Part shown: positions 27,871 to 37,188 of the stretch, piece after piece
Layout of the letters: every line of letters begins with the position of its first letter
How positions within the stretch are numbered: the first letter of the stretch is position 1
Assembly (NCBI GenBank): GCA_029557905.1
Contig: JAKQHR010000070.1
Location: 5,613 to 69,612, forward strand
Length of the DNA stretch: 64,000 bases
Direction: 5' to 3'
DNA from: Verrucomicrobiota bacterium
Lineage (GTDB): Bacteria > Verrucomicrobiota > Kiritimatiellia > JAKQHR01
Notes under the pieces: model-generated
What the model was told of the DNA's origin: nothing
The model's input: only the letters and a program-made list of their open reading frames with translations
The model's database searches: none
Position numbers and translations under genes: made by a program

Positions 27871-28287
27871 CTAATCTCCCGTCACCGTCACGACAATCCT
27901 GCGGCTTCTGGATTTGACGTCGCATTCCAGATGGAAAATCTGCTGCCATGTCCCCAGCACGAGCCCGCCGTTCTCCACCGGGACTATAAGCGACGGGCCC
28001 ATCAGGGCCGCCTGAAGATGTGAATGTCCGTTGCCGTCATGCCAGGTCTGCTCATGCCCATATTCGCAGGATGGCGGAATCAGGCGATCCAGCATTTCAG
28101 GCAGATCCCGCTCCAAGCCCGGTTCGAATTCAATCGTGCCTATCACCGCCGTGCTGCCCACATTGAACACATTCACAAGACCGGTCCGAATGCCGGATTC
28201 TGCCACAGCATCCGCAACCTGTGACGTGATGTCATGTATGTCGCGATGACCGTTTGTCGGGACGGTTATATTTTTCCGGTACACCAT
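27871..28287 (-). CDS. yjbQ: YjbQ/UPF0047 family protein (secondary thiamine-phosphate synthase-like)
   Basis: 138 aa starting MVYRKNITVPTNG..DITSQV..ESGIRTGLVNVF. The ORF-track start at 28446 overlaps the tRNA, so the start was moved to the internal ATG at 28287. Confidence 0.65.
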   Translation of the reverse strand: MVYRKNITVPTNGHRDIHDITSQVADAVAESGIRTGLVNVFNVGSTAVIGTIEFEPGLERDLPEMLDRLIPPSCEYGHEQTWHDGNGHSHLQAALMGPSLIVPVENGGLVLGTWQQIFHLECDVKSRSRRIVVTVTGD

Positions 28288-28335
28288 GACCTGAAGCCTA
28301 TGCGGCAACTCCTTTGAGAAACAAGAGCAAAATGA

Positions 28336-28360
28336 AAAGACCCGCTTCCGCGGGCCTTCA
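28336..28360 (-). terminator. Rho-independent terminator downstream of tRNA-Met
   Basis: Minus-strand GGCCCGCGGAAGCGGGTC hairpin followed by TTTTCATTTT. Confidence 0.55.
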
Positions 28361-28364
28361 AAAT

Positions 28365-28441
<77 letters not shown>

Positions 28442-28509
28442 ATCAAATATCACGGGAGAACATAATGCACACACGCTGAGATGCAAGCGAAAAAATATTT
28501 ATTCCTCGG

Positions 28510-29010
28510 CTATTTCTTCATCAAGATGCGAAGTGCGCGGATCTGCAGACGGATGAAGTCTCTTTCCATGCCGTCCATATCATGTTCCGCGAAGGCGGTT
28601 TCCAGCACCGGACTGTTTTCCCCTTGCGAGGTCCTTAAAAGCTCGTTGCGAACAACTTTCCCGTCCAGCCCGCAGCCGGTGAAGAACTCATGCAGCCGCC
28701 CGAAAATAGTACGGCACTTGTCTCCGCTGGGAGAGTGATCGCGCCTGGTCTCAAACGCCACCATCAGCGTGGATCCGCAAGCACAGTTCCGCAACAGGTC
28801 CACAACGCTCCCACTGGCATAGTCTTCATCAATAAAAAGCCCGCGGCCATCTTCCACGCTTTGGGTCCCCGCGATAAATTCATCCAGATTCGCATAGCTC
28901 CTGCCGCAGGAGCATTGCTTGGGAAAAGACTCTTTCGCAATGGTGATCAGGTCCCTCTGAATCGCCGAGATGATCGCCTGACGCTCCTGTCTGTTCAAAT
29001 TCTTCCCCAT
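28510..29010 (-). CDS. Hypothetical protein with paired CxCG motifs (QCSCGRS / NCACGST)
   Basis: About 166 aa from the internal ATG at 29010. The upstream part of the six-frame ORF overlaps the protease gene. No recognisable family. Confidence 0.3.
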   Translation of the reverse strand: MGKNLNRQERQAIISAIQRDLITIAKESFPKQCSCGRSYANLDEFIAGTQSVEDGRGLFIDEDYASGSVVDLLRNCACGSTLMVAFETRRDHSPSGDKCRTIFGRLHEFFTGCGLDGKVVRNELLRTSQGENSPVLETAFAEHDMDGMERDFIRLQIRALRILMKK

Positions 29011-29060
29011 AAGAATCCATTTCCCCCAATCGCGCTTCCCTTGCCGGTTCCTCTTCCGCT

Positions 29061-30590
29061 TCAATCCGGATCTACGAATGCCTTGTAATAACGATATATA
29101 AGATTCGTGGCTTTTGCATCCACAAAGGTCCACAGGCTGGTCGACGGGATCTGCGTGGCCAGATTGGTCCAGGATGATCCGTCCATCAGGTTGGTGGTGG
29201 CTTGAATCCCGTAAAAGACATTCGGCGACGTGCTGACTTTGATTACAAACCCCGTGTTGGAATGATAAGAAGTTTCAGTAAATTCCGGTATGGCGGCCGG
29301 GGCCTTGTGCCAGGCGAGACCGTATTCCGCTTCGGCATCCGATGTGACTTTCAGGGCGTAGCGGCCGGGCGGAAGGGCTCCCTGAAAAATGTGCTCCACA
29401 TTGTCCACCTGGCTGGTGCTCATATCCACCAGATCATTCGTGGCGAATCCGTCTGCCTCGTACAAATAAAGGTTGAGATTGGCTAAAAATGCCTGCGGGT
29501 TGAATCCGCCGCCGGGGGGATCGGAGATCTTTCGATGCCACGTCAGCACGACAGAAAACCGCGAGGGGGCATGGCTGTCCGGCGAGTCAAAGAAATACCA
29601 GTTGGTTCCCGCAGCGGGAAGTTCGCTGTAATCCCATCCTATATGATTCACCAGCGAGGTGGCACTGGCGTTCTGTTCTCCGTTGGTGAGAATATGCCAG
29701 CTGTTGTAAATGTTGATCTCTCCCGCTCCATAGTGTTCATCCAGCGGGCGAGAAGCAGTTCGATTCCAGTTCGTCCCGAATTCGGTCTTGGTCGCGCCGG
29801 CCAGCAGAAGAGCCTTGATGGTTTGCGGCATGGTCGCACTGGTCAAGGCATGCTTGTCTGCCGTTTCCATCAGGAGCGCGGCGCAGCTGCCAACCGCCGG
29901 TGTGGCATAGCTGGTGAATGTGAACGGGGCCACAATATCCGGTTTCACCCGCCCGGCCTCATCGAACAGCGTGGGGCCCGCGCTGTGACTGCCATCTGTC
30001 CTCCCGACAACGATTCCGTTATAGGTATGTCCCAGAAGGCCGGGGATCGCATCATTGGTGTTGTTGAGTCCCGCCACACAGGTGAAACCATCCCGGTCAA
30101 TGGCGTAATCCAGGCGCCGGACATAGTTGGAGTCACTGCCGGAATTTCCGATCCAGCTGTGATTTTGAATCCGGTTGGTCTCTACTGCCGGGCCGCCGCC
30201 ATCTCCCCCGGAAAGGAACCCGGCATCTCGCCAGTCCTCCTCCCAGTAGCAGTCCACATGATTGATGTTCGGCGAAATGCTGCTGCTGCGCCCGTAGAAA
30301 TATTTCCCGACCATTGTGGCATGCAGGGAGGAGCCTGTTGCCATAGCCGTCTTGTCGACGAAAGTTTTTCCCGAAAATTCATTGGTGTAGATGTCCGGAT
30401 AGTAATTGCCCAGGTAAGATCCCTCAATCTGTGAAACCGTGATATTCGTCCCGGTGGGTTTTGAGGCGCCCAGCTCAGCAAACAGGGAAACGGCGCCAAT
30501 ATCATGGGTCCAGGCCGCTTTGACTTTTGCCGTGCCCGTAAACAGCGCCAGAATCAGCGCCATCGTCATTCGAGTGCACAACTGCTTCAT
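29061..30590 (-). CDS. Secreted subtilisin-like (S8) serine peptidase-like protein
   Basis: Signal peptide. S8-like regions (DGxGHGTxxAG-like GLLGHTYNGIVVG, ...TSYATPAVGSCAALL). Catalytic Ser context is atypical. Confidence 0.45.
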   Translation of the reverse strand: MKQLCTRMTMALILALFTGTAKVKAAWTHDIGAVSLFAELGASKPTGTNITVSQIEGSYLGNYYPDIYTNEFSGKTFVDKTAMATGSSLHATMVGKYFYGRSSSISPNINHVDCYWEEDWRDAGFLSGGDGGGPAVETNRIQNHSWIGNSGSDSNYVRRLDYAIDRDGFTCVAGLNNTNDAIPGLLGHTYNGIVVGRTDGSHSAGPTLFDEAGRVKPDIVAPFTFTSYATPAVGSCAALLMETADKHALTSATMPQTIKALLLAGATKTEFGTNWNRTASRPLDEHYGAGEINIYNSWHILTNGEQNASATSLVNHIGWDYSELPAAGTNWYFFDSPDSHAPSRFSVVLTWHRKISDPPGGGFNPQAFLANLNLYLYEADGFATNDLVDMSTSQVDNVEHIFQGALPPGRYALKVTSDAEAEYGLAWHKAPAAIPEFTETSYHSNTGFVIKVSTSPNVFYGIQATTNLMDGSSWTNLATQIPSTSLWTFVDAKATNLIYRYYKAFVDPD

Positions 30591-30690
30591 ATTTCCTCTA
30601 TATCCTTAATTATGATCCCGATATCACGGCAGTTCAAGGCCGGAAGAGGATTATTGCATGAGTGGGATATTTTATATTCCCCCCTTGATA

Positions 30691-30706
30691 TTGAACTATA
30701 GTTCAA
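30691..30706. promoter_or_regulatory. SOS box, Cheo-type (GAAC-N4-GTTC): perfect 16-bp palindrome TTGAACTATAGTTCAA
   Basis: Seen directly in sequence, 30 nt upstream of the lexA-like ATG (30736), in the divergent promoter region shared with the S8 peptidase gene. Confidence 0.7.
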
Positions 30707-30735
30707 TTATATTCCGGACAGAAAAGGAATCGGTC

Positions 30736-31323
30736 ATGCCCAGAAAACTTAATCTTGAGAATATACTGAAAAAATTGCGGGTGTTCATCCGCGTGGAAAG
30801 ACGGATGCCGGGTTATGCCGAGATGCTGGAACTGTTCGGCTATCGCTCCAAGAATGCCGTTCACAACCTGCTCTGCAGACTGGAGCGGCTCGGCTATATC
30901 ACCAAAAACAGCAGAGGCAAACCCGCATGGACCGACAAGCTGATCGGATCCATTCGGCTGCTGGGCGCCGTGCAGGCGGGATTCCCCTCCCCGGCCGAAG
31001 AGGAACTGGTGGACACACTCAGCCTGGACGAATTCCTGGTGCGCCAGCCGGAGGCCACGTTTATGCTGACCGTATCCGGCGATTCTATGATTGAGGCAGG
31101 GATTCATCCCGGTGACCTCGTGCTGGTTGAACGCGGAACCGCCCCGAAAAAGAATGACATCGTGGTCGCGCAGGTGGACGGCGAGTGGACCCTCAAGTAT
31201 TTTGGACGCGACCGGCATGGCATCTATCTGGACCCCGCCAACAGCCGATATCAGCGGATTCGGCCCCGGAACTCCCTGACCGTTGGAGGGGTGGTCAGGG
31301 CCGTGGTCCGGAAATATCATTGA
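30736..31323 (+). CDS. lexA: LexA-like repressor / UmuD-like S24 peptidase with N-terminal wHTH
   Basis: N-terminal wHTH (LELFGYRSKNAVHNLLCRLERLGYI). Cleavage-site-like GAVQAG. S24 catalytic Ser in TVSGDSMIEAGI and Lys in LKYFGR. The six-frame start at 30658 would read through the SOS box, so the start was moved to the ATG at 30736. Confidence 0.7.
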   Translation: MPRKLNLENILKKLRVFIRVERRMPGYAEMLELFGYRSKNAVHNLLCRLERLGYITKNSRGKPAWTDKLIGSIRLLGAVQAGFPSPAEEELVDTLSLDEFLVRQPEATFMLTVSGDSMIEAGIHPGDLVLVERGTAPKKNDIVVAQVDGEWTLKYFGRDRHGIYLDPANSRYQRIRPRNSLTVGGVVRAVVRKYH

Positions 31324-31335
31324 GAGGCCGAGCCT

Positions 31336-32652
31336 ATGTCCCCGCAGGATCAGATACTGGTTTTCGGGACTTTCCCCGGGGCCATTGTTCATTTCGATGG
31401 CGACGCGTTCTTTGCCTCCGTGGAACAGGCCGCCGATCCTTCACTGAAGGGCCGGCCGGTGGTGACCGGCCGGGAGCGCGGCATCATCGCCTGCGCCAGC
31501 TACGAGGCCAAAGCCCTTGGGGTCAGGCGCGGCATTTCACTCCGGGATGCCCGAAAGATCTGCCCGCAGCTTGTGGTGCTTCCCAGCGACTATGAGACCT
31601 ACAGTCTCTATTCCCGCCGCATGTTTGACATTGCACGCCGGTTTACCCCCATCGTCGAAGAATATTCCATTGACGAGGGCTTTGCGGACATTGGGGGGCT
31701 GCGGCGTGTTTTTCACGTTTCTTATCAGGACATTGCAAAGCAAATCCAGAATACCGTGAGGGAAGAGTTGAACCTGACCGTTTCGATCGGCCTGAGTCTC
31801 ACCAAAAGCCTTGCCAAGCTGGCCTCCGATTTCAGGAAACCGGCAGGGTTTACCGCCGTGGCCGGCATGCATCTGCATCTGTTTCTCCAGCGCATACCGC
31901 TCGATAACGTCTGGGGCTTCGGCGCCAATACCGTTCAGCTGCTCAGGAAGCACGGACTGAAAACCGCATATGATTTTATCCTGAAGCCGGAAGCATGGGC
32001 TCAGAAAATGCTGGGGAAGCCCGGCCATGAGATATGGAGGGAACTTCGGGGACAAACGGTCTGGCCTGTCACCACGGAGGAGAAGTCCAGCTATGCCAGT
32101 ATCAGCAAATGCAAAACTTTCAGCGAGCCTTCAGCGGATCGTGATTACATCTGTGCCCGGCTGGTGCGCAATCTGGAATCCGCCTTTATCAAAGTCCGCC
32201 GGCATAAACTCAGGGTGAGGGAAATCACCGTTGCACTGCGTAAAGACGATTATTGTCAGGAGGGACTGAGGACGGCGCTGAACCGCCCCACGTCTTCCAC
32301 TCAGGAGGCACTCCCCCTGGTGCTGGATCTGTTCGGCTGGCTGTTCCGGCCGGATTGGAAATATCGCAGCACCATGGTGGTGCTCGGCAGGCTCGAAGAG
32401 GATCGCGAAGAGCAGTACGATCTTTTTGAAGACCGCATTCGGATTGAAAAACTTCACAAGGCTTCAGCAGTCATGGATGAAGTGAACGGGCAGTTCGGCA
32501 AGCACAGACTGCATATCGGGACAGGACAGTTCCTTGAAATGCCGCGTCCCTCACGGGATCGCGATATTCTGCCCTGGCGGAAAACGGATCTCCTGAAAGG
32601 CGAAACAGACCGCCGGCGACTGGCACTCCCCCGACTGAAAATAACAGTTTGA
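31336..32652 (+). CDS. umuC: Y-family translesion DNA polymerase, UmuC-like
   Basis: N-terminus HFDGDAFFASVEQ..., GIIACASYEAKALGV (UmuC-like) and SIDEGFADIGG. 438 aa. Immediately follows the S24-peptidase gene. Confidence 0.7.
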   Translation: MSPQDQILVFGTFPGAIVHFDGDAFFASVEQAADPSLKGRPVVTGRERGIIACASYEAKALGVRRGISLRDARKICPQLVVLPSDYETYSLYSRRMFDIARRFTPIVEEYSIDEGFADIGGLRRVFHVSYQDIAKQIQNTVREELNLTVSIGLSLTKSLAKLASDFRKPAGFTAVAGMHLHLFLQRIPLDNVWGFGANTVQLLRKHGLKTAYDFILKPEAWAQKMLGKPGHEIWRELRGQTVWPVTTEEKSSYASISKCKTFSEPSADRDYICARLVRNLESAFIKVRRHKLRVREITVALRKDDYCQEGLRTALNRPTSSTQEALPLVLDLFGWLFRPDWKYRSTMVVLGRLEEDREEQYDLFEDRIRIEKLHKASAVMDEVNGQFGKHRLHIGTGQFLEMPRPSRDRDILPWRKTDLLKGETDRRRLALPRLKITV

Positions 32653-32671
32653 CCGCCTGAGCATAAAAACA

Positions 32672-32697
32672 GCAAAGCCGGCCGGAGCCGGCTTTGC
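32672..32697 (-). terminator. Intrinsic terminator of rpsT (11-bp stem GCAAAGCCGGC/GCCGGCTTTGC, loop CGGA)
   Basis: Perfect hairpin. On the minus strand it is followed by TGTTTTTATGC. Lies between convergent umuC-like and rpsT. Confidence 0.6.
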
Positions 32698-32718
32698 CCA
32701 TTAAAGCTGAAAGAATCT

Positions 32719-32988
32719 TCAGGAGGCTTTTTTCACGCGGATGCGGTTTGCCGCGCGGGTTTTACGGCGCTGGGCCGTATTCCGGGAAATCACGCCCTTC
32801 TTGGCGGCCTTGTCCAGCTCTGAACAGTACTTCTTGTAAACAGCCTGAGGATCAGCGCCCTCGGCAACTTCAAATGACTCAAAAAACTTGCGGCGGGTGT
32901 TTTTCACCCGGGTTTTCACGCTCTGGTTGCGCTGGCGCGCCTCAACGGACTGCCGCAAACGCTTTTCTGCACTCTTATTGTTCGGCAT
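32719..32988 (-). CDS. rpsT: 30S ribosomal protein S20
   Basis: MPNNKSAEKRLRQS...RNQSVKTRVKN. 89 aa, basic. Confidence 0.9.
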   Translation of the reverse strand: MPNNKSAEKRLRQSVEARQRNQSVKTRVKNTRRKFFESFEVAEGADPQAVYKKYCSELDKAAKKGVISRNTAQRRKTRAANRIRVKKAS

Positions 32989-34049: not shown

Positions 34050-34726
34050 AGTTTCTGAAGTTTTGCATTGCGGTTCTGCTTCTTCCCGCCTGCGCCGTTG
34101 TCTGTCTCAGCCTCTTTCATCTCATCCTCGCGCTTCAGCCGGAGTCATCCCGTCAGATTCCTCCTTCTTTCTGGGGGCTCGCCATCGGCTTCTTCCTGTG
34201 GCTTTTTCTCTTCATCGTCTGCCAGAAGCCCGTCCGGACCTATGTCCTTGGCCATGAACTGACCCATGCCCTCTGGGCTGCGGTTACCGGCGCGCGTGTT
34301 TCCCGTCTGCGGGTGAGCGGGAAAGGAGGATCCGTCCAGGTCAGCAAAAGCACCTTTCTGATCACTCTCGCGCCCTATTTTTTCCCCTTCTACACTTTCT
34401 GTGTTTTGCTCCTCTACGCAGTTATCTCCGCCTTTCACAATCAGCGCATATATGAGCCTTTCTGGCTGGGACTGGTCGGCCTGACCTGGGCTTTCCATCT
34501 GACGTTCACCGTCCACATGCTCCTGCAGCACCAGCCGGATATTCACGAGAACGGGAGGCTCTTTTCCTGCGTCATCATCCTGCTCTTTAATGCAGCCGGC
34601 CTGTGCGTATGGATTGTGTGCATGTCCTCTGTCACCTTCGATCAGCTTCTGGCAATTATAACAGCCGACAGCCGGACCATGCTGAATGCGGGGCTCCGCC
34701 TGCTGCAGACCGCTTATTCAGGATAG
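34040..34726 (+). CDS. Polytopic membrane protein with HExxH motif (putative zinc metallopeptidase-like)
   Basis: GHELTHALW within/adjacent to TM segments. 10-nt overlap with the upstream kinase-like gene. Confidence 0.35.
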   Translation: MLLKFLKFCIAVLLLPACAVVCLSLFHLILALQPESSRQIPPSFWGLAIGFFLWLFLFIVCQKPVRTYVLGHELTHALWAAVTGARVSRLRVSGKGGSVQVSKSTFLITLAPYFFPFYTFCVLLLYAVISAFHNQRIYEPFWLGLVGLTWAFHLTFTVHMLLQHQPDIHENGRLFSCVIILLFNAAGLCVWIVCMSSVTFDQLLAIITADSRTMLNAGLRLLQTAYSG

Positions 34727-35961
34727 CGCTTCCGGATGGCCGCAAGGATATCGCGGATTGAAAGGAAGATATCAACCAGTTCCGGATCGAAGTGTTTTCC
34801 AGACTCTTCCCGGATAACCTTTAAAGCATCATCTTCAGACCAGGCCTCCTTGTAGACCCGGCGTGAAACCAGGGCATCATAGACATCTGCCAGCCCGACG
34901 ATGCGTCCGAAAAGCGGTATTTCCGTTCCACGCCGAGGTCGCGCCTCGCTGGTTTGATCATCCACAAAGGATGGATATCCGGTTCCATCCCATTTCTGGT
35001 GATGATTGATAGCCACCTCCTGAGCTGCACGATCGTAAGCGGTCATATGACCAATGAAAATATCCGCCCCCTGCTCCGCATGGGTCTTCATCACATCGAA
35101 CTCCTCCGGCGTGAGCCTTCCGGGCTTCTTCAGAATCAGATCCGAAATGGCCACCTTGCCGACATCGTGCAGCATGGCGGCAATGCGCAGGACATCCTTT
35201 TCCTCCTCAATCCTGCTTTCCGGAAGCCCGTGCTTTATCGCCCAGCGCTCATAGAGTTCCACTGCATAGGCCGCCACGCGGTTCACATGCGCTCCCGTTT
35301 CACGCGGATCGCGCAGTTCGGACATTTTGACCATGCGGAGAATAATCGAGCGCGTCATCACCGCGCGCTCCAGCGCAGCAGCGGCCAGGCCCGCAAACAT
35401 CTCCATCTGACGCTGGATTTCCGGGGAGAAAGGGATGGTTCTGCCCTCCCGGTCCACCGCATTGATCAGTTGAAGCACTCCAAGCACCTGCTGCTCTGCC
35501 GCCAGGAGCGGCAGGGCAAGGATAGATTTCGTGCGGTAACCGGACGACACATCAAAACCCTGTTCAAACCGATAGGGCGCTTCCGGATCAATTGCATAGG
35601 CATCAGGGATGTTGATCGTCTCCTTCGTGCAGGCGGAATAGCCGGCAATGGAGGTTCTGTCAACGGGAAGTGAAAAACAATCATAGATCAGTTTTGCATC
35701 AGGCTGGAGTTTACTTTCCAGCGTTGAGTTCTGAGTGTAACTGAAATGCAGGCGATGGTTGTCCAGCAGATAAATTGATCCGGCATCGGCTCCGGCAAAA
35801 GCGCGGGCGCTGCGCAGTATGCGCTCCATGAGGAGGTCCATATCCTTTACCCGGTTAAAGTCCGTCCCGAGTTTTTCCAGCATCGCGATTTTTTCTTCCG
35901 GCGTCATCTTCCCTCCGGCTTCCCCCACAATATAACCATCCCGCTTAAAAAGATAATGCAA
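34714..35961 (-). CDS. GAF-domain HD-GYP phosphodiesterase (c-di-GMP signalling)
   Basis: HD motif AAMLHDVGK and GYP motif HHQKWDGTGYP. N-terminal GAF-like region. Confidence 0.7.
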   Translation of the reverse strand: MHYLFKRDGYIVGEAGGKMTPEEKIAMLEKLGTDFNRVKDMDLLMERILRSARAFAGADAGSIYLLDNHRLHFSYTQNSTLESKLQPDAKLIYDCFSLPVDRTSIAGYSACTKETINIPDAYAIDPEAPYRFEQGFDVSSGYRTKSILALPLLAAEQQVLGVLQLINAVDREGRTIPFSPEIQRQMEMFAGLAAAALERAVMTRSIILRMVKMSELRDPRETGAHVNRVAAYAVELYERWAIKHGLPESRIEEEKDVLRIAAMLHDVGKVAISDLILKKPGRLTPEEFDVMKTHAEQGADIFIGHMTAYDRAAQEVAINHHQKWDGTGYPSFVDDQTSEARPRRGTEIPLFGRIVGLADVYDALVSRRVYKEAWSEDDALKVIREESGKHFDPELVDIFLSIRDILAAIRKRYPE

Positions 35962-35991: not shown

Positions 35992-37188
35992 TCATCCCTT
36001 CAGCACTCCAAGCGGGCGGAGGTGGACAGCTGTTTCCACAAGATCGGACTGGGACTCCATGACCTCATGGATATCCTTGTAGGCGGCAGGGGCTTCGCCC
36101 AGGTCATATTCTCCGGCGCTGCGGTTCCGGCCGCTAATGCGGCTCCAGCCGTCAAACTCGATGCCGCGCATGGCCCGGTCGCAGGCATCCTTGTCCAGTT
36201 TCCGGCAGGCTTCTTTTCTTCCAAGGCGACGGCCGGCGCCATGCGAGCACGACTGAAACGAGTCCGCATTTCCGAGGCCCCGGACAATGCACGAACTCGA
36301 GCCCATGCTCCCGGGAATGATTCCCCATTCTCCTTCGCGAGCAGACGTGGCCCCCTTGCGGTGCACCCACACCATGCGGCCGAAATGGTCTTCCTGCGCT
36401 GCATAGTTGTGATGGATATTGATCTCCAGGGTAAAACCAGGAGACAAATGCTCCTGCACGGCATCCTTGAAGCGCTTCATCATCCGTGCACGGTTTTCGC
36501 GGGCGTAGGCCAGCGCAAAGTTCATGTCCCGGATGTAGTTCTGTCCTTCCTGCGAGGCCGCCGGAAGCGAAGCCAAATCCATTGTCGGCAATTCGATTTT
36601 CCTGTCTGCAGCATAACTTCTGGCAATGCCGTGATGCCATTCAGCAATCCGGTAGCCCAGATTGCGCGAGCCGGAATGAAGCATCATCCACAGGAATCCA
36701 TCGTCTCCAGCCTGCAGTTCAATAAAATGATTGCCCCCTCCCAGTGTGCCCAGGTTCCGCCAGGCCAGTTCCCGCGCGCGGGCGTCCATCCAGTTCCCCG
36801 AGGCCTCGAATTCGTCCAGCTCAGTCCATTCCTGAGGCACCCTGTGGCCGTGGCCCTCGCCCAGCGGGATCATCCGTTTGAGGCTTTCCAGTATGTCGCG
36901 GATGGTTCCCTTTGTGACCCCTGCCGCTTCGCAGTCAGTCCGGACAGCGCCCATTCCGCATCCGATGTCCACTCCCACCGCATTGGGAATCACATGATCC
37001 GGGCAGGCAATCACCCCGCCGATCGGCATGCCGTAGCCGGGATGGCAGTCCGGCATCAGGGCTATGTGATGAAAGACATGCGGATGGCGCGCGAGATCAC
37101 GCGCCTGACTCATCGCTTTGTCATCCACGTGCCGGCACCAGGATAGAATCGGCACGCGATACGATTCATCTGTGTCCCGCCATTCCAT
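35992..37188 (-). CDS. rtcB: RNA-splicing ligase RtcB
   Basis: 398 aa. RtcB metal/GMP-His region GHGMPIGGV..., HNYAA, HRKGAT, CSHGAGR. Confidence 0.8.
   Translation of the reverse strand: MEWRDTDESYRVPILSWCRHVDDKAMSQARDLARHPHVFHHIALMPDCHPGYGMPIGGVIACPDHVIPNAVGVDIGCGMGAVRTDCEAAGVTKGTIRDILESLKRMIPLGEGHGHRVPQEWTELDEFEASGNWMDARARELAWRNLGTLGGGNHFIELQAGDDGFLWMMLHSGSRNLGYRIAEWHHGIARSYAADRKIELPTMDLASLPAASQEGQNYIRDMNFALAYARENRARMMKRFKDAVQEHLSPGFTLEINIHHNYAAQEDHFGRMVWVHRKGATSAREGEWGIIPGSMGSSSCIVRGLGNADSFQSCSHGAGRRLGRKEACRKLDKDACDRAMRGIEFDGWSRISGRNRSAGEYDLGEAPAAYKDIHEVMESQSDLVETAVHLRPLGVLKG

Follow-up and report, generated by a model that had tools for sequence, protein, structure and literature searches.

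A predicted self-repressed lexA gene coupled to a DinB/PolY1-type translesion polymerase in a Kiritimatiellota-type bacterium

The 64-kb stretch of DNA analyzed here (the window) probably carries the canonical, self-repressed lexA of a Kiritimatiellota-type bacterium of the PVC group, in one transcription unit with the gene for a DinB/PolY1-type translesion polymerase, polY. The initial annotation described a self-contained SOS mutagenesis cassette set apart from a canonical lexA. This description is not supported: hundreds of Kiritimatiellota and Lentisphaerota species have this protein as their LexA orthologue, half of the orthologues occur without a polymerase, and the lexA-polY arrangement occurs widely and belongs to a known type rather than being a special new cassette. 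The coordinates of all features are collected in Table 1.

Table 1. Features of the lexA-polY locus and its surroundings, in window coordinates.
Feature	Coordinates	Strand	Basis
S8 peptidase, divergent from lexA	29061-30590	-	domain scan
lexA promoter -35 hexamer, TTGATA	30685..30690	+	promoter scan; 10/12 sigma-70 match, 17-bp spacer
SOS box, predicted LexA operator, 18-bp perfect palindrome ATTGAACTATAGTTCAAT	30690..30707	.	sequence and conservation
Inner 16-bp perfect palindrome TTGAACTATAGTTCAA	30691-30706		
Operator core TGAAC-N4-GTTCA	30692-30705		
lexA promoter -10 hexamer, TATATT	30708..30713	+	promoter scan
Shine-Dalgarno-like AAGGA, 7 nt 5' of the lexA ATG	30724..30728	+	direct reading of the sequence
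lexA, 195 aa	30736..31323	+	Pfam S24, TIGR00498, alignments
Predicted LexA cleavage site, Ala81-Gly82	30976-30981		
LexA catalytic Ser117	31084-31086		
LexA catalytic Lys154	31195-31197		
Weak promoter-like site (9/12) within the lexA 3' end	31292-31320		
polY, Y-family translesion polymerase, 438 aa	31336..32652	+	IMS/IMS_C, Pol IV models, fold matches
Predicted beta-clamp motif QYDLF, PolY residues 360-364	32413-32427		
RecA-N-terminus-like helix, PolY residues ~367-392	32434-32511		
Family-specific conserved PolY tail, residues ~405-438	32548-32649		
GC-rich hairpin, 12-bp stem, between polY and rpsT	32671..32698	.	terminator scan; T-run confined to the rpsT (minus) side
rpsT, convergent with polY	32719-32988	-	domain scan

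The assignment of the first gene as lexA relies on profile scores and on alignment of the functional residues. As first annotated, the protein combines a predicted winged helix-turn-helix with an S24 domain. The S24 domain spans residues 75-187 (Pfam S24, 98.4 bits), and residues 9-194 exceed the TIGR00498 lexA equivalog cut-off by a narrow margin (114.9 bits against 110.95). The winged helix-turn-helix, at approximately residues 9-58, scores 22.0 bits with LexA_DNA_bind (PF01726), slightly below the cut-off of 23.7, and the N-terminal domain aligns with the helix 2-3 region of the E. coli and Bacillaceae LexA proteins. The same model gives 28.7 bits for a paralogue at the related locus L080. 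The predicted cleavage site and the catalytic serine and lysine correspond to A84-G85, S119, and K156 of E. coli LexA and are invariant across 81 orthologues. The species-representative genomes contain 521 relatives of the protein, which their sources call 'transcriptional repressor LexA'. A mechanical open reading frame start at 30658 was rejected, as it lies upstream of the promoter and the homologues all begin with MPRK or MPRT.

The perfect 16-bp palindrome of the GAAC-N4-GTTC class noted earlier upstream of lexA is present and grows to a perfect 18-mer. The 16-bp palindrome ends 29 nt, rather than 30 nt, before the lexA ATG, and the gap between lexA and polY is 12 nt, rather than 13 nt. 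The -35 and -10 hexamers are 17 bp apart, and the palindrome takes up this spacer. Counts within the 64-kb window are not significant for either the GAAC-N4-GTTC dyad (one observed, 0.76 expected) or 16-bp perfect palindromes (two observed, ∼1.1 expected), and cross-species conservation and position were therefore used as evidence. Upstream of 48 out of 81 orthologous lexA genes, TGAAC-N4-GTTCA occurs in perfect form, and a further 20 upstream regions match it at nine out of ten bases; among 1620 shuffled controls, none reached ten out of ten and 12 reached nine. The position of the box within the promoter spacer is fixed across the box-bearing orthologous loci. In nearly all 81 orthologous loci, and likewise in six loci of other phyla, a TTGaaa or TTGaca -35 element keeps the same spacing to the box, and a TATnnT -10 element is kept 2 nt 3' of the box in related loci. 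The same layout of box and promoter is found in the lexA promoters of Dictyoglomus, Thermodesulfovibrionales (Nitrospirota), and CPR bacteria, including a Nitrospirota MAG in which it occurs without polY. From this conservation we infer that the predicted LexA operator lies in the promoter of its own gene and mediates autoregulation, in agreement with the initial annotation of an SOS box ahead of an autoregulated LexA.

The initial annotation also called for a search for further GAAC-N4-GTTC boxes, which yielded none beyond chance. The 64-kb window contains 25 matches with at most two mismatches against 22 expected, neither a second SOS box nor a further SOS gene was found within it, and 800 kb of flanking DNA from related loci gave only two further matches. 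Within a single clade, GTAC half-sites co-vary with the recognition helix AVYGPV (13/18 against 1/55), an association that is only suggestive.

The GAAC-N4-GTTC motif class has been described (PMC4951493), and the dyad and the autoregulation of lexA are shared with the LexA (DinR) of Firmicutes and Actinobacteria, which recognizes the Cheo box CGAAC-N4-GTTCG. The recognition helix pattern V-H...L.RLE is common to the window LexA and a Bacillaceae LexA, with an identity of 35%, and a CPR member of the window LexA subfamily even carries CGAACGTACGTTCG. In contrast with the C/G flanks of the Bacillus consensus, the window box has T/A flanks (TGAAC...GTTCA). The window lexA has one operator, which coincides exactly with the promoter spacer; several boxes are present in the single Bacillaceae lexA upstream region that was read. 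The window LexA has a UmuD-like C-terminal domain (AGFPSPAEEE), unlike the Bacillaceae LexA compared. The operator of Geobacter is reportedly GGTT-N2-C-N4-G-N3-ACC and differs from that of the window.

No terminator-like site was found between lexA and polY, consistent with co-transcription, although the weak promoter-like site within the 3' end of lexA could allow some LexA-independent transcription of polY. The two genes are linked in 42 out of 81 loci, and about half of the orthologues have no attached polymerase. Linkage extends to the isolate Pontiella desulfatans F1, to Planctomycetia and Omnitrophica outgroups, to Dictyoglomus (PolY 46% identical), to a CPR bacterium, and to another metagenomic relative, and it looks ancestral. 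The mixture of linked and unlinked copies bears on the possibility that the window gene is a dedicated paralogue that controls only itself and the polymerase, with a canonical lexA elsewhere, similar to the lexA2-imuA-imuB-dnaE2 cassettes. Two related MAGs each contain a pair of lexA loci (L055/L080 and L053/L062), of which only one is linked to polY; at L080, the polY-linked copy differs in its operator (GTAC-N4-GTAC) and in its recognition helix; and only one box is present within the window. The two-copy MAGs may, however, be mixed bins, and in the LexA tree the copies with and without polY mingle even at shallow nodes instead of separating into two paralogue clades. The window LexA, which passes the lexA equivalog cut-off, belongs to the main clade and has the same box as the unlinked copies, and a close relative of the polY-linked copies (L029) heads a lexA-ligT-recA cluster behind one box. 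A dedicated paralogue is hence improbable, and the canonical LexA of the lineage is the preferred identity.

The surroundings of the locus provide information on its origin. The S8 peptidase gene reported earlier as divergent from the cassette is real, but neither it nor the 'CxCG' open reading frame reported with it is syntenic with lexA in 80 related loci. The same holds for rpsT and the kinase, and the neighbors are consequently not considered part of the lexA-polY unit. The hairpin between polY and rpsT probably ends both transcripts. The lack of synteny could also be expected of a module from a phage, ICE, or plasmid, comprising a repressor and a polymerase, in the manner of umuDC, rumAB, and mucAB on mobile elements; pairs of an S24 protein and a PolY are very common on conjugative plasmids, and small selfish genes sit between lexA and polY in some relatives. 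Such an origin is very improbable for the window locus. Its GC content equals that of the flanks, with no anomaly in a composition test for horizontal origin, and the five open reading frames scanned on each side contain no mobile-element domains. In addition to rpsT, the neighbors include tRNA-Met, a UPF0047 protein, and a Kdo-type kinase. The N-terminal domain is of the LexA rather than the cI/Cro type, and the LexA tree displays deep, clade-structured diversity within the lineage. The locus looks native, given the GC match and the rpsT neighbor. Some relatives have open reading frames between lexA and polY; these were considered as a third subunit and rejected, since they are unconserved insertions or relics of the four-helix-bundle (23S IVP-like) or GxxExxY type.

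The second gene encodes a Y-family polymerase, as initially annotated, and its position points to co-transcription with lexA; the label UmuC-like, on the other hand, does not apply to its core. The protein contains IMS (159.2 bits) and IMS_C (48.1 bits) domains, and 64 homologues all retain its catalytic residues D21, D113, and E114. Several Pol IV models score 213-231 bits, compared with 129.8 bits for the UmuC model NF002955, which has a cut-off of 431. The scores remain below the curated Pol IV equivalog cut-offs (at best 230.7 against 367 and 222 against 256), and polY is therefore placed in a PolY subfamily of its own, closest to Pol IV/PolY1; the sources name its homologues 'DNA polymerase IV'. 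In BLASTP alignments with E. coli DinB and UmuC, polY has a Phe steric gate within DGDAFFASVE and a GRERGI segment, whereas UmuC has Tyr and SNNDGC. By fold, it is closest to B. subtilis PolY1, MsDpo4, and DinB, the top structural match being B. subtilis DPO41. An AF2 model built on the 64-sequence alignment reached a pLDDT of 83.7 (32.6 in a single-sequence run) and displays a helix at residues 367-387 followed by a low-confidence tail. By these comparisons, the polymerase core is DinB/PolY1-like.

The polymerase aligns end to end with E. coli UmuC, and QYDLF and VMDEVNGQFGKHRLHIG of polY align with QLNLF and VMDTLNAKEGRGTLYF of UmuC, which correspond to the clamp motif and the RecA-N-terminus-like helix. 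The DUF4113 model, however, is matched only at positions 4-26 of 51 (13.8 bits against a cut-off of 24). All six polY family members examined match its first half, and one of these exceeds the cut-off, while its second half (SPxYTTRWxELP), the UmuD'-binding region, is unmatched in polY. A genuine UmuC at the related locus L071 matches positions 3-50 with 80.7 bits and has its own UmuD-like partner. Identification of polY as UmuC was rejected on account of the higher Pol IV scores, the half match to DUF4113, and the absence of the UmuC tail. A pairwise comparison of the polY helix with the real RecA N-terminus was not significant (59 out of 500 shuffles reach the score), and the helix is labeled on the basis of homology to UmuC/DUF4113 and of published analysis, which describes a RecA-N-terminus-like motif in PolYs (PMC6511836, PMC12926913). 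The Y-family core, clamp motif, and RecA-N-terminus-like motif are shared with the putative PolY-RecA mutasomes and the B. subtilis PolY1 (YqjH) group (PMC6511836, PMC12926913). The tails of YqjH homologues are stated in that work to be usually variable or missing, whereas the window polY family has a strongly conserved 35-residue tail with the consensus RDxxPWRKxxLLPGETxRQRLxxPRLxIKV.

The C-terminal domain of LexA really is, in its sequence, more similar to UmuD than to E. coli LexA. Residues 80-191 exceed the cut-off of the UmuD subfamily model NF007621 (112.7 against 110 bits), and the best PDB match is E. coli UmuD with 76 bits, compared with 47-50 bits for the C-terminal domain of E. coli LexA. 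The 81 PVC LexA proteins have a median identity of 41% with E. coli UmuD against 33% with E. coli LexA; for the window S24 domain, the identity to UmuD is 43% over 97 aa, and plasmid UmuDs reach ∼50% over the domain. Cleavage at the predicted site would expose GFPSPA as the N-terminus, exactly as in UmuD'. These similarities raise the possibility of the dual LexA/UmuD role suggested in the initial annotation, in which the cleaved fragment Gly82-His195, which begins with GFPSPAEEE, acts as a UmuD'-like subunit and forms a Pol V-like mutasome with PolY, perhaps through its tail, and RecA. The order of clamp motif, RecA-N-terminus-like helix, and strongly conserved tail in polY is UmuC-like, the low AF2 confidence of the tail is as expected of a partner-binding segment, and the tightly coupled genes follow the order seen in umuDC. 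We nevertheless consider such a dual role unlikely. The polY tail differs from that of UmuC, with the UmuD'-binding half of DUF4113 unmatched, and the same lineage has the true UmuC at L071 with that tail and a partner of its own. AGFPSPAEEE and the entire C-terminal domain are equally invariant in 30 orthologues that have no adjacent polymerase, and the UmuD-like domain is shared across a broad LexA subfamily, some of whose members lack a linked polY. The core of polY is DinB/PolY1-like, and polymerases of this type function as single chains. An extended version, a little less likely again, proposes that LexA is the pro-form of a polymerase subunit: RecA-triggered cleavage would both open the promoter and free a UmuD' equivalent that assembles with RecA on the C-terminal extension of PolY, and lexA-polY, as found in PVC bacteria, Dictyoglomota, and CPR, would be ancestral to umuDC. 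If this were true, umuDC would have arisen from lexA-polY by loss of the DNA-binding domain.

E. coli umuDC has the same order as the window locus, with an SOS box in control of an S24 gene and, directly 3' of it, the gene for a Y-family polymerase. UmuD, however, consists of ∼140 aa without a DNA-binding domain, while the 195-aa window protein has a LexA-type N-terminal domain and is itself the predicted repressor, and its partner, unlike UmuC, combines a DinB/PolY1-like core with the lack of a UmuD'-binding tail. Acinetobacter UmuDAb also contains a UmuD-like S24 domain together with an N-terminal DNA-binding region; it self-cleaves and represses error-prone polymerase genes, an example of a UmuD/LexA-related protein able to repress (PMC11332147, PMC8565304). 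UmuDAb stands in for an absent LexA, depends on DdrR as co-repressor, and recognizes a large, atypical site (PMC11332147, PMC8565304), whereas the window LexA has a predicted regular LexA winged helix-turn-helix and a standard short dyad as predicted operator, and is the LexA orthologue of its lineage.

With the window protein taken as this canonical LexA, conservation and motifs suggest the following mode of action. A LexA dimer would bind TGAAC-N4-GTTCA and thereby block RNA polymerase, the palindrome taking up the promoter spacer. Upon DNA damage, RecA filaments would stimulate self-cleavage of LexA at Ala81-Gly82 by the Ser117/Lys154 dyad, in which the residues are assigned by alignment and the reaction follows knowledge of the family. 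The freed promoter would then allow LexA and the polymerase to be produced together, in keeping with the short gap and the lack of an intervening terminator-like site. The polymerase, in which the catalytic residues are intact, probably reaches stalled forks through the QYDLF beta-clamp motif and may bind RecA through the RecA-N-terminus-like helix, and fresh LexA would shut the loop again. A precedent for the polymerase is dinB, which belongs to the core SOS genes (PMC8565304). A related arrangement is the operon lexA-(imuB-C)-polY ('lexA-dinB') of Geobacter sulfurreducens, which is damage-induced and expressed as one transcript (Jara 2003, as cited in PMC6511836). As far as that citation describes it, the operon likewise has lexA as its first gene and an active Y-family polymerase as its last, but an ImuB-C gene separates lexA from polY and Geobacter has two such operons, whereas the window type has no conserved third gene.

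In 2016, the SOS response was regarded as undocumented in the PVC superphylum, with only the Verrucomicrobia motif TGTTC-N4-GAACA described (PMC4951493), and no description of an SOS system in Kiritimatiellota and Lentisphaerota was found in the literature searched. The Verrucomicrobia system, exemplified by lexA-imuA-imuB-dnaE2 in Opitutus (PMC4951493), resembles that of the window in belonging to the PVC superphylum, in having lexA at the head of a mutagenesis operon, and in using a 14-bp dyad with a 4-nt spacer. The two differ in that the half-sites are reversed relative to TGAAC-N4-GTTCA and the partner is imuA-imuB-dnaE2 rather than a single active PolY. Evolution of the LexA motif through tandem sites has been proposed (PMC4951493), and the window operator is relevant to this proposal because sister phyla use oppositely oriented half-sites. 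The locus leaves the accepted view of how the SOS response works unchanged. Together with its relatives, it supplies a well-supported operator, a fixed architecture with the operator in the promoter spacer, and a conserved lexA-polY unit, and TGAAC-N4-GTTCA provides a ready motif for regulon prediction in Kiritimatiellota and Lentisphaerota.

The 17-bp spacer of the sigma-70 promoter of lexA, the gene for a 195-aa S24 protein, is occupied by a perfect palindrome, TGAAC-N4-GTTCA. The initial annotation had noted this palindrome, but its frequency in the window does not depart significantly from expectation: GAAC-N4-GTTC occurs once (0.76 expected), 16-bp perfect palindromes twice (~1.1 expected) and the 14-mer with up to two mismatches 25 times (22 expected). 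The operator is judged to be more than chance because it is conserved among relatives. When a single genome was scanned for each species, 521 relatives emerged, and the best 80 loci were used with the window; these 80 come from Kiritimatiellia, Pontiella, Lentisphaerota, Victivallales, and single Planctomycetia and Omnitrophica MAGs. The perfect box is found in 48 of the 81 lexA upstream regions and a 9/10 match in 20 more, as opposed to 0 and 12, respectively, of 1620 shuffled upstream regions. Its position is fixed in the relatives, directly 3' of a TTGaaa/TTGaca hexamer and two bases 5' of TATnnT, despite a distance to the start codon of 27 to >200 nt. Outside lexA promoters, the relaxed form TGWAC-N4-GTWCA appears only twice in 800 kb of related loci.

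The same layout is present in members of the LexA subfamily from a Dictyoglomus MAG (TTGACA-G-TGAACAAACGTTCA-CC-TATAAT), a Thermodesulfovibrionales MAG, a CPR (Taylorbacteria-like) contig, and three unassigned contigs; in these six loci (L088-L093) it reads TTGACA-x-(T/C)GAAC-N4-GTTC(A/G)-xx-TATAAT. On this conservation, the operator is both real and old. Pontiellaceae loci (e.g. L011, L012, L020, L034, L039) carry GTAC in place of GAAC half-sites. GTAC half-sites occur at 13 of the 18 loci with AVYGPV as the LexA recognition helix and at 1 of 55 others; the pattern is limited to one clade and may reflect protein-DNA co-variation.

Features of the window and of related loci (L-numbers, each in its own coordinates)
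Feature	Locus	Position	Strand	Remarks
lexA promoter + operator	window	30685-30713	+	TTGATA-ATTGAACTATAGTTCAAT-TATATT; sigma-70 match 10/12
Operator palindrome	window	30691-30706; 30690-30707		16 bp; 18 bp; perfect
Ribosome-binding site	window			AAGGA; between promoter and lexA ATG at 30736
lexA	window	30736-31323	+	195 aa
Weak sigma-70-like site	window	31292-31320	+	TGGTCA-17-TATCAT, 9/12; in lexA 3' end just 5' of polY
polY	window	31336-32652	+	438 aa; 12 nt after lexA
GC-rich hairpin	window	32671-32698		between polY and convergent rpsT
UPF0047-family ORF	window	27871-28446		mechanical ORF
tRNA-Met (CAT)	window	28365-28441	-	
'CxCG' ORF	window	28510-29133		
GAF + HD-GYP-like protein	window	34714-35961	-	putative
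RtcB-type RNA ligase	window	35992-37188	-	putative
lexA, LigT-family gene, recA	L029	6001-8248		
umuD-like + umuC	L071	8961-10855		~2.3 kb 3' of lexA
lexA-polY insert	L008	6653-7066		
lexA-polY insert	L051	3544-3960		
lexA-polY insert	L013	6931-7410		
lexA-polY insert	L025	6932-7330		
lexA-polY insert	L084	5594-5815		
lexA-polY insert	L027	6610-6825		

Several lines of evidence identify the first protein. It scores 98 bits for Pfam Peptidase_S24, falls slightly below the cut-off for LexA_DNA_bind (22.0 vs 23.7), and passes the NCBIfam LexA equivalog (114.9 vs 110.95 bits). The Ala81-Gly82 cleavage site, Ser117, and Lys154 align to their E. coli counterparts and do not vary across the 81 orthologues, and homologues are labelled 'transcriptional repressor LexA' in public sources. 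At L029, a LigT-family gene and then recA (RecA 445 bits) come immediately after lexA. The GC content of the lexA-polY locus equals that of its flanks, a tRNA-Met gene lies nearby, and no mobile-element domains were detected with Pfam in five flanking ORFs, so acquisition of the pair on a mobile element is very improbable. The model match, catalytic residues, homologue names, recA linkage, and native composition and neighbours point to the canonical SOS repressor rather than an accessory copy; the self-contained cassette originally proposed, read as separate from the canonical lexA, is not supported in view of the equivalog match and the ligT-recA linkage. A lexA ATG at 30658 in the mechanical ORF list was rejected, as it lies 5' of the promoter and all homologues begin MPRK or MPRT. 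In the unusual L029 cluster, one SOS box (9/10) precedes the lexA, LigT/2',5'-RNA-ligase-family, and recA genes, which are arranged tightly head to tail.

That the window gene is a dedicated second lexA paralogue is unlikely given the LexA tree and the recA linkage, although two MAGs hold two lexA loci each (L055 and L080 in JAMLJG01, Kiritimatiellia ACE_NR_VERR3; L053 and L062 in CAZHRU01). In JAMLJG01, L055, which lacks polY, has the operator TGAACGGGTGTTCA; in the deep-branching, polY-linked L080, AGTACAAACGTACT occupies that position in the spacer and the recognition helix differs (SIASVQFALKRL). This could mean a second, orthogonal LexA/operator pair, or else that the bin is mixed.

The gene directly 3' of lexA does encode a Y-family polymerase (Pfam IMS and IMS_C), but its description as umuC-like is not upheld. 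PolY reaches 213-231 bits with several Pol IV models and 130 bits with that for UmuC. As no score attains the curated cut-off of its model, PolY constitutes a separate subfamily. BLASTP identity to E. coli DinB is 33% (core). To UmuC it is 28%, in an alignment that extends from end to end and pairs QYDLF with QLNLF, the clamp motif of UmuC, as well as VMDEVNGQFGKHRLHIG with VMDTLNAKEGRGTLYF. Like DinB, PolY has a Phe steric gate, and none of D21, D113, and E114 varies among 64 homologues. In an AF2 model from the 64-sequence alignment, the Y-family core is predicted with confidence, residues 367-387 form a helix, and the tail is of low confidence; the top fold matches are B. subtilis DPO41 (PolY1), MsDpo4, DinB, and T. 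tengcongensis Dbh. Of DUF4113, the UmuC C-terminal domain, only the first half is detected, weakly, in all six PolY family members tested. PMC6511836 relates this half by homology to the oligomerisation motif at the RecA N-terminus, and PolYs that carry such a RecA-NT-like motif are widespread (PMC6511836, PMC12926913); taken alone, the pairwise match between the PolY helix and a real RecA N-terminus falls short of significance. In place of the second half, which is the UmuD'-binding tail, PolY carries a different, strongly conserved tail, RDxxPWRKxxLLPGETxRQRLxxPRLxIKV. By these comparisons, PolY is DinB/PolY1-like rather than UmuC. In contrast, L071 has a genuine umuD-like and umuC pair with a full DUF4113 (80.7 bits). 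Its 198-aa S24 protein, whose gene overlaps umuC, has no wHTH of the LexA type; it contains AGFPSPADD and is extended at the N-terminus by a basic segment. The UmuC tail is SPAYTTRWDELP. No TGAAC-N4-GTTCA box is present in the 110 nt 5' of this pair.

An unusual, real property of the window LexA is an S24 domain closer to UmuD than to E. coli LexA. It passes the NCBIfam UmuD subfamily (112.7 bits vs cut-off 110), and the best PDB match is UmuD (76 bits vs 47-50 for the isolated E. coli LexA C-terminal domain). E. coli UmuD has a median identity of 41% to the 81 LexAs, compared with 33% to E. coli LexA, and identity reaches ~50% for plasmid UmuDs; GFPSPA follows the cleavage site in both the window LexA and UmuD'. 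An exhaustive representative search returned many full-length, ~190-aa LexA-like clusters of the same subfamily; ten were looked up, and the three named among them come from a Dictyoglomus MAG, a CPR bacterium, and Nitrospirota MAGs. As a repressor that bears a UmuD-like domain, UmuDAb sets the precedent (PMC11332147). However, PolY lacks a UmuC-type tail, and the S24 domain is equally conserved in LexAs unlinked to polY, with AGFPSPAEEE equally invariant there. A LexA that represses and also serves as UmuD' is thus doubtful, with a small residual chance at the window locus.

Of the 81 loci, 42 have PolY 3' of lexA and in the same orientation, 30 lack it in the sequence at hand, and two have a remnant or an unrelated polymerase; seven are too short to judge. 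Linked and unlinked copies are intermixed in the LexA tree. As the two genes are linked on the deepest branches (Planctomycetia, Omnitrophica, L080), the linkage looks ancestral with repeated loss. The pair also occurs in the Dictyoglomus MAG (4-nt gap; PolY 46% identical to that of the window), one CPR contig, and another metagenomic relative; polY is kept in three of L088-L093. The isolate Pontiella desulfatans F1 has a 73-aa relic ORF between lexA and polY, and the CPR contig a PemK-type toxin gene. In several relatives, small genes or relics of the 23S-rRNA-intervening-sequence (four-helix-bundle) or GxxExxY type sit exactly between the two genes, and ORFs in the wider gaps were rejected as conserved partners on this basis. 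In L027, polY has shrunk to a 36-residue remnant. The weak sigma-70-like site in the window could permit some LexA-independent polY transcription. Among the neighbours, the UPF0047 ORF reads through tRNA-Met in its N-terminal part, and its true start therefore lies further downstream. The first 85 codons of the 'CxCG' ORF overlap the S8 peptidase ORF 3' end (29061-29133), and the two putative 3' neighbours were assigned by eye.

The locus is an ordinary canonical lexA-polY SOS operon. Its sequence features, their conservation, and the orthology of its genes are observed, and a standard SOS loop is the best-supported reading. LexA would bind the spacer operator and occlude its own promoter; RecA filaments would trigger cleavage at Ala81-Gly82, after which LexA and PolY would be expressed together. 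PolY would be recruited via its clamp motif and possibly also via RecA, and fresh LexA would restore repression. Of the earlier interpretation, the SOS box and a LexA with a linked Y-family polymerase stand; the UmuC-like polymerase and the self-contained cassette do not find support.

The window operator falls in the GAAC-N4-GTTC class known in Firmicutes and Actinobacteria (PMC4951493). Across phyla, dinB belongs to the core of SOS genes (PMC8565304), and a lexA-led polY operon of Geobacter has been shown to be damage-induced (Jara 2003, as cited in PMC6511836). In Opitutus (Verrucomicrobium), lexA-imuA-imuB-dnaE2 is a predicted, putative operon (PMC4951493); the half-site orientation in Verrucomicrobia is opposite to that of the Kiritimatiellota/Lentisphaerota operator. 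No prior account of the LexA motif and promoter layout of Kiritimatiellota and Lentisphaerota was found in the literature searched. The novelty is modest: the operator motif and promoter layout are now defined for these two groups, and the operator-in-spacer layout, often with a lexA-polY unit, is conserved across distant phyla.
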